46,081 nt of DNA, from the IMG/VR virus record IMGVR_UViG_2684623059_000005. One strand, written 5' to 3'. This document shows positions 9,001-12,000 of the stretch, in pieces. Made by a program: the position numbers. The first letter of the stretch is position 1; the number at the start of each line of letters is the position of its first letter. Source of the stretch: a virus (Duplodnaviria; Heunggongvirae; Uroviricota; Caudoviricetes).

Positions 9001-12000
9001 AAGGAAGAGTTTTCTTGTTGTTGTGTTTCTCCGATTTCGGAAAGCACGCTTAACATTCTGCTTCTGAGTGCATCTACGCCATTATTAAGACCAAGATTCA
9101 ATAATTCCGCATAAATCCTTCCCCTCCCGTCCCCCTCGGCCAAAAAACTGCCAGGTTCTGATTCATAGGAAACTCGAACTATATGTTCGCCTATACGGAT
9201 TTCTCCAATCTGCCCAGTCATTACCTGGTGGCGTAGTTCTGTTAACTCATTAGAGAATGAAGCCGATGATATATATGACACTAATCCAGGCATTACTATA
9301 TTCCCTCGTATGGTTAAATATTTCCTCAATTCTTCTATAACAAATATCACCATGATGCGACAACATAAAAACCGGAGTCGGACTCCGGTTTTGTGAAGCT
9401 GTCGGGTTACTTCATCCCGCCAATATTTTCCCACGTCCCGTCAGCACGCAGAATTTGCAGCGGTCTTACCACGCACTGTATCTGCTTTTTATCCGCATCC
9501 AGTATCACCACCTGCGTGATTACCCTGGCCTGCTCCGGGATAATACCATTCTCATCTGACTCCAGGATGTCTGCCGGCCCCAGTCGCAGTTGTGCTGTAA
9601 GTGACTGCCCGTGTTCACGGCCATCATGCTTTCCGCAACCGCACAGACGCTGCATAAGTTTTTTTAGTATGTTCATGTCATTCTCCTGTTCTGCCTGTAT
9701 CACTGCCCACTTCATCCAGCCCCTTAACATCCTGCCACGGCCCGTCACCAAATCTGACCTGCAAATGCTGAAACATCCCCTGAACCTGTGTGGCATCTTT
9801 GGGGTCAAGAAAGGTCAGTCCGGTGATGAGCGCACCATCTGTATCCGGGAACCAGCCATAGCTGTTTGTCTCAATAATGCTCATCGGCCCCAGACGAAAA
9901 CGGATTTGTGTCTCGCCCGGGTCTCCCTTCGGCCCCTGAGGTCCGGTAGCCCCCACCGGACCTGCCGCTCCTGTTTCTCCTTTCGGTCCCTGTGGGCCTG
10001 CCGGGCCTGCTGCACCAGTATCTCCCTTTGGCCCCTGTGGACCTGTACTTCCCGTCAGACCGGTCTCTCCCCGTTCCCCCCTGTCGCCTTTCGGCCCCTG
10101 CGGGCCTGCCGGACCTGTATCTCCTCTCGGTCCCCGTTCGCCGGTTGCCCCGACAGGGCCGGTGTCACCACGCTCTCCCTTATCACCCTTCGGCCCCTGA
10201 GGGCCAGCGGGCCCCTGTTCCCCCTTTGGCCCGGGAGGTCCCACCACGGTGGGGATTCGGTTTACGGCCTCTTCCGCCGCTATCCTGCTTTGTTCCGCTG
10301 ACTGTGCGCTTTCTGCTGACTCCCGGGCTTTTTCTGCTGCGGTCGTTGCATCCCTGGATGCATTACCGGCTGCACTTTCTGCCGTCTTTCTTGACAATTC
10401 AGCTTCTGCTGCACTTTGTGATGACTCACTGGCTTTTTGAGCGGCCGCAGAAGCCGAGGACGAGGACGCATCCTCTGACTGCTTTGCTGAGGCTGCACTT
10501 TCTGCCGCCTGCCGGGCTGACTCCGATGCCTCCCCTGCTGAAGTGTCAGCATTTGCAGCGCTCTCTTCTGCCTGACTGGCTGATATGCCGGCATTCCTCG
10601 CTGACGTCTCCGCCTCTCCGGCATTATTCTTCGCCTCCTCAGCGTGACGCGCCACCTCTTCCACCATCAGTTCAAAACGGCGCAGTGCCTCTGGCCGGAC
10701 GTCATCCTCCGACATGGCACCGAGAAAATCATTCAGCGTACCGGGTTGAGAATCTTCATACACGGTGATGGTCCCGGCATGTGACGGCGGGAAGCCCTCC
10801 ACCAACAGAATGACGCTGTACTGACCGTACTCAACGTCCATTGTGTAACGACCGGCTTCATCCGGATTTTCAGAGGCCACCGTGTTCACCACCACCGTGG
10901 TGCTGTTGCGTCTGGCCTTTAGCTGAATGGTGCAGTTTTGTACCGGTTTTCCTGTGCCGTCTTTCAGTACACCTGAAATATTTACTGCCATATTCACCCC
11001 ACAAAAAAGCCCGCCTGAACCGGCGGGCTGTCATAACACTGTGTTACCTGGCTAATCAGAATTTATAACCGACACCCACGATGAAACCGTCAGTGCGCCA
11101 GTCACCACTGCCGGAGCCTTCATAAGCGACATCAACGGCCACGGATTCGGTCGGGTTAAACTGCACGCCAGCCCCCCACGCCAGAGACGTGTTACTGTGG
11201 CGACCGTCATCACTTCCGGTCAGCACATCGTGCGTTTTCCCCTTGTTGTCAGTTACGCGGAGATAATCCCCGGAAAAAGCCGACACACGGCTGTAAGCCA
11301 CACCCGCCATCGCATACGTGCTGAACCATTCATTCACGCGCACAGATGGCCCCGCCATCACGCTGAACCAGCGGTTACGCACAGAATCTTCATGCCAGCG
11401 GGTATCGCTGTAACGGGTCAGCTGGCGATTCTTGTCTCCTGCATAGCTGAATGACGTCACCAGCCCCAGCGTGTCCGTAAACTCATAACGGTATTTCACA
11501 TTAATCCCGTTCAGATCATCGCTGCCGGGAACGTTCGTCGGGGCATGAAGATACCCCGCGCTCAGTGTGGACTGATGTTCAGACGCCCATGCAGGCGCAC
11601 CGGATACGGCCAGACAGATGGCTGCGGACAAAATGGCTGCACAAACTTTACGCATAATTACCTCTCGCTTTTCTGCAATAAAAAAGGCACCATTTCTGGT
11701 GCCCTTATATGGGTTATAACAATTTCAACGAATACTGATGCCGGAAGCCGCTTTTTTGGTCACAATCACCGTACAGTCGGTGATATTGCCTGCCCCCTGA
11801 TTGCCTTTCTGGTAAATCTTAAACTCCAGAGTGACGCTACCTCGCCCACTCGGCATATCAATAACCGCACTGTAACTACCGGGAATGGCCCCTTTAGTTT
11901 CTCTGGATGCGATTAATACGCCGTTTTTGCGAACTTCAAATCCATAACCCGTGTACCTTGTACCTCCCGGATTATTACCACTTCCCGGATCGGTATACGC

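Follow-up and report, generated by a model that had tools for sequence, protein, structure and literature searches.

A paralogue of the fibre tip domain encoded directly downstream of an EPclA-type collagen-like tail fibre gene in a lambdoid phage genome

In a 46,081-nt stretch of DNA from a tailed phage (Caudoviricetes; IMG/VR record IMGVR_UViG_2684623059_000005), referred to here as the window, a collagen-containing tail fibre gene is followed by a gene for an 89-aa protein whose C-terminal segment resembles that of the fibre itself. What does a phage do with a second, free-standing version of its fibre tip? A sequence-only reading of the locus had proposed a specialised assembly chaperone or an alternative fibre tip. 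We find that the small gene encodes a real late protein tied to the distal end of the fibre, whose exact role we infer from its homology, inheritance and expression.

All features described here lie on the minus strand. The side tail fibre gene (9678-10997 in the ORF list) opens at GTG 10997 as a 439-aa reading frame and ends with TGA at 9680-9678; ATG 10991 is probably the true start, yielding the canonical 437 aa. The predicted product combines Pfam families PF08400, PF01391 and PF06820. Its N-terminal domain, PfN (residues 3-135; 10593-10991), covers PF08400 (phage_tail_N) profile positions 1-133 of 134 with E=4.2e-69, and residues 3-95 match the 'Tail fiber protein' chain of PDB 9E7M, the Ur-lambda gpStf N-domain, with E=3.5e-52. 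Through PfN the fibre is anchored on the tail tip. Next comes an Ala/Ser/Glu-rich tract, PCoil, defined by composition (residues 136-252; 10242-10592); the 115 residues from 136 to 250 include 37 Ala, 25 Ser and 16 Glu. By analogy with EPclA (Ghosh 2012, PMC3368898), this tract would form a coiled coil. The collagen domain (residues 253-363; 9909-10241; PF01391, E=2.8e-18) is a single run of 37 G-X-Y triplets spanning 111 aa without interruption, as counted by regular expression. The distal knob, PfC (residues 365-428; 9714-9905), matches all 64 positions of the PF06820 'Phage_fiber_C' profile (E=3.9e-34), and an 11-residue tail that the small protein lacks (9681-9713) completes the fibre. Thus, the lambda Stf-like N-terminus, the low-complexity tract and the roughly 110 aa of collagen repeats described in the sequence-only reading are all present where it placed them.

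This layout (437 aa, 116-aa PCoil, 111-aa collagen) is that of Table 2 of Ghosh 2012, and the fibre possesses every sequence feature of an EPclA: PfN, a PCoil-class tract of ~116 aa, uninterrupted G-X-Y repeats and PfC. In EPclA itself (ECs2717 of O157:H7 Sakai), domain order and sizes are identical to those in the window, and the gene likewise follows J and lom in a lambdoid prophage. The differences are only allelic, with no complete E. coli genome matching the window region at more than 95.7% identity, and the host of the window differs in being E. albertii-like. ECs2717 is a dumbbell-shaped homotrimer by AUC, MALLS and EM; its Col-PfC fragment forms a triple helix with a Tm of 42 C, and PfC in isolation trimerises autonomously and nucleates the collagen helix anew (Ghosh 2012, PMC3368898). 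The fibre is therefore already known: collagen-like side tail fibres of this type have been well described from EHEC-type lambdoid prophages.

The small gene (9407-9676; stop TAA at 9407-9409) has an independent start. Its junction with the fibre gene reads TGAcATG, in which the fibre TGA (9680-9678) is followed by C at 9677 and the ATG at 9676, so that one base separates the two genes. The overlap that had been reported belongs to a mechanically called 133-aa ORF beginning at TTG 9808. A Shine-Dalgarno sequence, GGAG (9683-9686; ACAGGAGAATGACATG), lies within the last fibre codons, 6 bases from the ATG.

Residues 28-89 of the small protein (9410-9595) match the complete PF06820 profile (positions 1-64 of 64; E=1e-34; 119 bits against a curated cut-off of 25), and the protein matches phrog_576 over positions 1-89 of 89 (E=7.5e-60); RefSeq names it 'phage tail fiber C-terminal domain-containing protein'. 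Formal pairwise alignment upheld the C-terminal resemblance to the fibre: 21 of 62 residues are identical (34%), with 58% positives and E=7e-10 by BLASTP. Because this similarity far exceeds chance, the proposition that the two C-termini are unrelated fails. When all of the 46-kb window was searched in six frames, the fibre knob and the small protein were each other's sole significant match (E ~4-7e-8). By these alignments, the small protein is a true paralogue of the fibre tip domain. Its layout comprises a predicted helix at residues 3-12, a CGCG linker and the stand-alone PfC. AlphaFold2 monomer models from 10-row and 15-row alignments were uninformative (mean pLDDT 57 and 49), although the helix at residues 3-12 was common to both at low confidence. 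A search of the PDB with a profile of both PfC types gave no true match (best E=0.048, spurious).

We then asked how the small gene has been maintained. Among 79 intact 270-nt copies there are 63 DNA alleles versus only 31 protein alleles, and pN/pS is 0.145 for the whole gene and 0.094 for its PfC part, compared with 0.27 for the fibre PfC; synonymous diversity is similar in the two (~0.1). These values show strong purifying selection on the small gene, a result new to this analysis. Of the 79 copies, 77 retain both the ATG and the TGAcATG junction. The two others carry an IS66-family insertion just upstream, as inspected at one locus (L081) and indicated by the same upstream residues at the other (L046); a different fibre context at these two loci was considered and rejected on inspection of L081. 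In a distant lineage (L085/L088), a small-type gene, now frameshifted, immediately follows a fibre-type PfC; compared with the window, the small type is 48% identical and the fibre type only 27%. Conservation is thus higher in the small protein than in the fibre knob, within E. coli as well as between lineages. A partner that grips a variable surface is not expected to show such a pattern.

The small protein is also inherited together with the distal part of the fibre. In the phage collection, small-type and fibre-type PfC each occur in 296 records with an identical breakdown by organism, and the pair is commonplace among E. coli, E. albertii and Stx phages. Homology of this siphoviral prophage with the podovirus TL-2011c is confined to window positions 10227..9359 (91.5% identity), that is, the collagen start, PfC, the small gene and the terminator. 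This hairpin, which resembles an intrinsic terminator (9368-9392; 11-pair stem, T-rich tail), lies directly 3' of the small gene; the fibre/small-gene unit ends there, as does the homology with podoviral Stx phages. A second such hairpin, between lom and the fibre gene (11008-11029; 8-pair stem, 7 GC; TTTTTT), forms the upstream boundary of the bicistronic unit, within which no promoter-like sites were found on the coding strand of the two genes. The comparison indicates that collagen, knob, small gene and terminator move as one block between siphoviruses and podoviruses, which is also new here, as are the co-occurrence in the phage collection and, described below, the lack of recombination-grade DNA identity with the fibre and the phi24B peptides.

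The pair itself is already in the literature and databases. Sp5 ORF67/ORF68 (ECs1228 and an 89-aa gene), 933W L0121/L0122 and phi24B gp61/'gp59' carry the same collagen-PfC-small-gene-terminator block at ~91% DNA identity, with small proteins 93-99% identical to that of the window; the 89-aa PfC-only gene was explicitly described for Sp5 (Mondal 2016). In those phages the block sits on a podoviral EPclB-type lateral fibre with two collagen domains and another N-terminal attachment, whereas in the window it follows a lambda Stf N-domain. Lambda Stf-Tfa shares with the window both this attachment domain (the PDB 9E7M match) and the gene order J, lom, fibre, small downstream gene. It differs in having a lambda/T4 gp37-like tip rather than a collagen helix with PfC, and in that its downstream gene encodes a Caudo_TAP protein rather than a tip paralogue. 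Papers on engineered lambda Stf chimeras do not mention this fibre type or its companion. The T2/T6-type gp37-gp38 pair, with its separate small adhesin bound to the fibre tip, is a conceptual parallel for a small protein whose gene immediately follows that of the fibre and which could occupy the tip; gp38 has no sequence relationship to the small protein of the window, and it is not known to be a paralogue of the gp37 tip.

The wider family was surveyed as well. A profile search of 1.84 billion proteins returned only 93 matches at E<=0.001. In a Pfam scan of eight of them, five were fibre fragments or chimeras, one (P0242) carried tandem PfC-like modules, and the remainder were unrelated repeat proteins (e.g. 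CarboxypepD_reg, SprB). A scan of species-representative genomes found three loci, one in E. albertii; the other two, on short contigs labelled Xanthomonas and Clostridiales, are probably contamination or mis-binning. One collagen-containing metagenomic protein has four PfC-like modules in tandem; module-on-module stacking is therefore natural to the fold.

The protein is expressed during phage production. The purified phi24B virion proteome contains two peptides unique to it, ADGTWENIGGMK and VITQVVILDADKK, at low level: by our own reading of the supplement columns, three spectral matches per peptide, versus up to 181 for fibre peptides. The small protein would thus be present at well under one copy per fibre and could be a contaminant of the preparation. 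Lom and Bor, found in the same preparation, are comparable possible contaminants. The phi24B main text does not mention gp59, and a literature search by locus tags for expression data yielded nothing useful. On K-12, ORF68 of Sp5 is listed with the late genes that the phage can do without, unlike the fibre gene, which is essential (Mondal 2016), and recombinant EPclA made in E. coli forms trimers when the small protein is missing (Ghosh 2012, PMC3368898). These two results imply that any role of the small protein is subtle or host-dependent.

Our preferred, still tentative, reading is that the small protein is a dispensable accessory at the fibre's distal end, a free mini-trimer that docks on the tip or aids maturation. 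The locus itself is what EHEC/E. albertii-type lambdoid prophages standardly carry as their distal tail-fibre module. Its fibre would be an EPclA-type trimer, in which an Stf-like N-domain on the tail tip leads through a coiled coil and a collagen triple helix to a distal trimeric PfC knob. The small gene is the last cistron of the late transcript, its translation coupled at TGAcATG and starting from its own ATG and Shine-Dalgarno sequence. The product, a short N-terminal helical stub joined to a PfC knob, would fold as a mini-trimer and act at the fibre's distal end, either docked on the tip or helping the fibre to mature; we infer both its trimeric state and its physical association with the tip.

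A more specific version of this idea, which we consider improbable, makes the small protein part of a two-piece fibre tip, as a detachable second knob, or one shed as a free knob at lysis. The N-terminal stub might dock on the fibre PfC trimer or on its 11-residue tail, and the second knob might bind with a further, more conserved specificity, of consequence only for natural hosts that bear O-antigen. Either a two-piece tip or a shed knob would explain dispensability on K-12, scarcity in stored virion preparations, higher conservation and constant co-inheritance.

The chaperone proposal draws on gene position: the small gene lies directly downstream of the fibre gene, where lambda has its tfa, and it is translationally coupled. 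As an analogue of Tfa, its product would transiently help to set the register of knob and collagen and then be released, and its trace level in virions is what a departing chaperone would leave. The sequence-only reading had stated that no Tfa-type gene is present. It was right that no intact tfa exists, but a 50-codon remnant with an internal stop persists downstream at 4178-4327 (tblastn E=4e-26), co-oriented with the fibre gene, with ~5 kb of T3SS-effector cargo lying between the two. The remnant is 93% identical in DNA to a CB9615 pseudogene annotated by RefSeq as 'tail fiber assembly protein; internal stop; missing N-terminus'. Since the true tfa has decayed to this fossil, the fibre does not use Tfa. 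The small protein, however, is not a chaperone of the Tfa type: it has no Caudo_TAP similarity, its sole Pfam match at E<=0.1 being PF06820, and no NCBIfam match. A required chaperone is contradicted further by the self-sufficient trimerisation of rEPclA and isolated PfC, by the refolding of the melted collagen helix within minutes (Ghosh 2012, PMC3368898) and by the dispensability of Sp5 ORF68 beside an essential fibre gene (Mondal 2016). We therefore regard an assembly chaperone as unlikely. To our knowledge, no chaperone has been described that is itself a folded paralogue of the trimer domain of its substrate.

It is also rather doubtful that the small protein functions independently of fibre assembly, as a soluble knob released at lysis to block receptors or debris or to serve as a ligand for some conserved structure on bacterial or host surfaces. 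Its higher conservation than the fibre knob suggests a conserved target, its trace level in virions would fit, and the family is limited to prophages of T3SS-bearing enterics with adjoining effector cargo. Against this, the protein has neither signal peptide nor lipobox, matches no PADLOC defence-system model, and is strictly co-inherited with the collagen-knob block, for which shared function is the simplest cause. A lipoprotein or secreted protein was rejected because the N-terminus (MNILKKLMQRLCGCG) has no hydrophobic core, K5, K6 and R10 break the PROSITE-style lipobox rule, and the Cys pair is missing from the distant orthologue; a defence or exclusion system was rejected for the lack of a PADLOC match.

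An intragenomic reservoir, in which a spare tip cassette recombines onto the fibre and changes its specificity, was proposed for Sp5 ORF68 (Mondal 2016), and the databases hold one in-frame hybrid of collagen with a small-type PfC (P0065) and one reciprocal chimera (P0189). P0065, however, lies at a contig edge in two samples, all 70 fibres examined end in a fibre-type tip, and the small-type relatives among the matches listed are all <=131 aa. The fibre-knob and small-gene segments are 53% identical in nucleotides with a longest exact match of 10 nt, in the range of shuffled controls (mean 9.3, maximum 14), and so offer no substrate for homologous exchange. The small gene is translated, as the phi24B peptides attest, and keeps strong protein-level selection and its own ATG and Shine-Dalgarno sequence, neither of which a silent cassette needs. 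The two genes are also co-oriented, with no invertase ORF among the nearby ones listed and with lom and NleG as flanking genes. The small protein is not a silent recombination cassette, and the 'alternative fibre tip' of the sequence-only reading, taken as tip swapping, is not supported; we judge a reservoir role very unlikely. Invertible or shufflon tips (Mu Gin, P1 Cin, e14 Pin) were rejected because both genes have the same orientation, the small gene has its own ATG and Shine-Dalgarno sequence, and no invertase is among the ORFs listed; a diversity-generating retroelement target/template pair was rejected on the same 53% identity and chance-length match.

Finally, a +1 programmed frameshift or stop bypass at the fibre UGA-C would yield a minor form of the fibre that carries a second knob in tandem (fibre-D-MNILKK...). 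The frame of the small gene is shifted by +1 from that of the fibre and is open for 46 codons upstream in 65 copies, tandem PfC-like modules occur in nature, and the phi24B authors had 'Fusion_6159_FS1/FS2' models with the row label 'Spike or just gp59?'. A UGA-C stop with an SD-like GGAG just upstream, as found here, resembles prfB. Yet by our own reading of the sequence no slippery P-site codon is visible and GAA cannot re-pair on AAU, the upstream frame is open for only 13 codons in 11 copies, and the distant lineage keeps the ATG and N-terminal helix pattern despite a different junction (a 14-nt overlap). The junction peptide is absent from the accessible part of the phi24B supplement, and no frameshift signal was found in Sp5 (Mondal 2016). 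The small protein is probably not a frameshift extension of the fibre, and we consider a frameshift or bypass giving a tandem-knob fibre extremely unlikely.

In EHEC, EPEC and E. albertii, most prophages that carry Shiga-toxin and effector genes bear such fibres, and these fibres thereby help to decide which strains gain toxin and effector genes. Their 89-aa companion, always present, has so far been labelled only "hypothetical" or "reservoir". Its recognition as a selected, translated protein linked to the distal module of the fibre is a modest gain in the understanding of these prophages rather than a new kind of system.

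Two ORFs occupy the minus strand of the window between 9407 and 10997. The larger (9678-10997) encodes a side tail fibre of 439 aa from a GTG; an alternative start, ATG 10991, lies two codons in and yields the family's canonical 437 aa. The sequence-only reading had described a Stf-like N-terminus, a low-complexity tract and collagen repeats in this protein, and all three were confirmed. Pfam phage_tail_N (PF08400) covers residues 3-135 (E=4e-69), and residues 3-95 match the "Tail fiber protein" chain of PDB 9E7M (E=3.5e-52), which represents the side tail fibre N-domain of Ur-lambda within a tail-tip complex. 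Residues 136-250 contain 37 Ala, 25 Ser and 16 Glu in 115 positions, and residues 253-363 form 37 G-X-Y triplets without interruption, with a Pfam match to Collagen (PF01391). The terminal knob, Phage_fiber_C (PF06820), spans residues 365-428 (E=4e-34).

The object is correctly described yet well known. The fibre has the EPclA architecture, in the order PfN (N-domain), PCoil (the Ala/Ser/Glu tract), Col (collagen) and PfC (knob) (Ghosh et al. 2012, PMC3368898), and its sizes are those of the O157:H7 copies (437 aa, a PCoil of the 116-aa class and 111 aa of collagen); every EPclA feature testable in sequence was found. Using AUC, SEC-MALLS, CD and EM, Ghosh et al. characterized EPclA protein as a trimeric dumbbell, in which the "low-complexity" tract forms a trimeric coiled coil, a genuine triple helix (Tm 42 C) makes up the collagen part and PfC trimerizes in isolation and re-nucleates the helix after melting (PMC3368898). 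Of 5426 complete E. coli genomes, 4823 match region 9300-11100 at least in part, with a top identity of 95.7%. RefSeq names the two products "prophage tail fiber N-terminal domain-containing protein" and "phage tail fiber C-terminal domain-containing protein". The locus is a further copy of a module that thousands of genomes carry, and not a new kind of element. Among known systems it most resembles the O157:H7 EPclA genes and the ORF67/ORF68 pair of phage Sp5 (also L0121/L0122 of 933W), and lambda Stf-Tfa provides the ancestral frame.

The second ORF (9407-9676, minus strand, ATG 9676) encodes a small protein of 89 aa. Residues 28-89 match PF06820 over the full length of the profile (E=1e-34), PHROG family 576 (phrog_576) matches from end to end, and membership tests placed the protein in PF06820/phrog_576. 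The same tests placed it outside the Tfa family, with no similarity to Caudo_TAP, and outside invertible tip cassettes and DGR template/target pairs. Its proposed resemblance to the fibre C-terminus is real and withstood formal alignment: BLASTP aligned residues 366-427 of the fibre with residues 29-88 of the small protein (34% identity, 58% positives, E=7e-10), and when the whole window was searched in six frames, neither protein had any significant match but the other. The overlap ascribed to the two genes is absent: a single base separates the fibre TGA (9680-9678) from the small-gene ATG, and GGAG lies six bases upstream of that ATG.

We collected 80 IMG/VR loci plus the window, which yielded 79 intact copies of the small gene. 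The TGAcATG junction is retained in 77 of these; the other two share a different upstream sequence, an IS66-family insertion in the one inspected. Among the 79 copies, 63 alleles are distinguishable in DNA but only 31 in protein, and pN/pS (pairwise Nei-Gojobori) is 0.145 overall, 0.094 in PfC and 0.36 over codons 1-27. The corresponding value for the PfC of the fibre is 0.27, at a similar synonymous diversity of ~0.1. Protein-level constraint on the small gene is therefore at least as strong as on the fibre tip.

The small gene is inherited and exchanged only jointly with the distal part of the fibre. In the phage collection, the small type and the fibre-type PfC each occur in 296 records, with identical organism breakdowns. 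Podovirus TL-2011c is homologous to the siphoviral prophage of the window only over 10227..9359 (870 bp, 91.5%), a segment that begins at the first collagen triplets, covers PfC and the small gene, and stops just beyond the terminator hairpin past the small gene (9368-9392). What passes from one virion type to the other is thus a unit made up of collagen, knob, small gene and terminator. A distant locus (L085-L088), probably from a Salmonella host, has SopA/NleL-like, NleG and PhsA-like neighbours and no match in E. coli genomes. There, a fibre-type PfC remnant is directly followed by a small-type gene, now frameshifted, and an NleG fragment (L085 5971-6637; L088 168-834), in the order found in the window. 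Its small type is 48% identical to that of the window (E=2e-24), whereas its fibre type is only 27% identical; in the N-terminal helix, positions 4, 7 and 11 remain hydrophobic, but Cys-Gly-Cys is absent.

The pairing of the two genes is already in print, in the account by Mondal et al. 2016 (PMC5155283) of the Stx2 podovirus Sp5, in which ORF67, the fibre gene, is essential, the 89-aa gene (ORF68) counts as a non-essential late gene and no frameshift signal was found. The small gene goes unmentioned in Ghosh et al. 2012 (PMC3368898) and is not discussed in the main text of the 2026 phi24B cryo-EM preprint (10.64898/2026.04.10.717836). The proteome supplement of that preprint reports, from purified virions, the peptides ADGTWENIGGMK and VITQVVILDADKK, which are unique to the small protein and are assigned to hypothetical fibre-fusion models, to a 135-codon ORF and to "gp59_start", in a row labelled "Spike or just gp59?" (10.64898/2026.04.10.717836). 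By our reading of the table, the spectral matches number 3 for each of the two and up to 181 for fibre peptides; the small protein is therefore made during phage production, and stored virions contain it in no more than trace amounts. It comes from a genuine late gene that has a start of its own, and it is conserved at the protein level.

The surrounding prophage lies in an E. albertii-like host, as indicated by flanking core genes qor-pspG-dusA only ~91% identical to E. coli, a fibre C-terminus 100% identical to an E. albertii entry, and E. albertii as the only plausible match among species-representative genomes. Within window 1-3749, an integrase ORF (2652-3749) directly follows qor, pspG and dusA, so the prophage adjoins dusA. 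The reported lack of a Tfa chaperone gene needs qualification: tfa survives as a fossil at 4178-4327 (minus strand, 50 codons with an internal stop), ~5 kb from the fibre gene. Its shared orientation with the fibre, and the effector genes between them, suggest that the collagen-knob-small-gene block and the cargo displaced an ancestral Stf distal part and Tfa. The effector cargo (4560-9434), which separates the fibre module from the prophage end, comprises an EspM2-like ORF (4560-5150, −), four NleG-like ORFs (5333-5959, +; 7250-7903, −; 7998-8681, −; 8703-9434, −, the last being the only one checked by Pfam) and two further ORFs (6064-6555 and 6570-7121, both +). From its mechanical GTG at 9434, the last NleG ORF would overlap the small gene at its 3′ end and cross the terminator hairpin; its real start is probably an internal Met (MPGLVSY..., about 9293). 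Terminator-like hairpins also flank lom on the minus strand, before the fibre gene (11008-11029) and after J (11683-11706), in the usual moron layout.

How the small protein works is a matter of graded likelihood, and its earlier interpretation as a specialised chaperone or alternative tip is supported only in part. The fibre PfC is an established trimer, and we infer the same for its small paralogue. With its short amphipathic N-terminal helix, the small protein would form a free "mini-fibre", a dispensable accessory at the fibre's distal end that either docks on the knob or aids knob maturation; we hold this reading tentatively, at somewhat below even chances. Docking on the knob is opposed by the scarcity of the small protein in phi24B virions, by the lack of a reported defect when Sp5 without ORF68 is grown on K-12, and by a conservation exceeding that of the knob it would contact. 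A Tfa-like chaperone is rather unlikely; such a role suits where the gene lies, the decayed state of true tfa and the trace amount in virions, whereas rEPclA and PfC self-assemble, the small gene is non-essential and the protein is devoid of Caudo_TAP similarity. We likewise doubt that it is a detachable second knob that would make a two-piece fibre tip. An independent role as a released knob would accommodate both a conservation above that of the fibre knob and the scarcity in virions, but the protein carries no signal peptide and matches no defence model, and we regard this role as improbable.

The silent reservoir proposed by Mondal et al. 2016 (PMC5155283) is very unlikely, given that the small protein is under selection, its gene is translated and DNA identity to the fibre gene is lacking. 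The PfC-coding segments of the two genes are 53% identical in nucleotides, and no exact match between the small gene and the entire fibre gene exceeds 10 nt, which does not surpass shuffled controls (mean 9.3, maximum 14); there is no recombination substrate between them. Hybrids are rare, and among the best 120 of 175 clusters of small-type relatives all proteins are ≤131 aa. Joins that could be real rearrangements or assembly or sequencing artefacts are an in-frame hybrid joining collagen to the small type, located at the edge of a contig in two samples (P0065, L092 4-291), one reciprocal chimera of a small N-terminus and a fibre-type knob (P0189), and fibre and small ORFs fused by indels in two IMG/VR contigs (L057 3514-4267; L075 2644-4267). 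Least probable is a +1 frameshift or stop-bypass fusion of the two proteins, for which the +1 frame of the small gene and a UGA-C stop context with upstream GGAG, reminiscent of prfB, are countered by the lack of a slippery codon, a stop 13 codons upstream in 11 copies, a start codon and N-terminus kept across differing junction geometry, and the absence of any junction peptide from the phi24B proteome data examined.

A profile search of 1.84 billion representatives returned only 93 matches at E≤0.001, and five of eight scanned with Pfam were fibre fragments or chimeras with PF06820. Another of the eight, a 565-aa metagenomic protein (P0242, L089 3505-5202), carries four tandem PfC-like modules of ~90 aa each, followed by collagen repeats, indicating that such knobs can be strung serially on one chain. 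For the small protein itself, the question of function is narrowed to that of a selected, translated and module-bound product that is not a recombination cassette.
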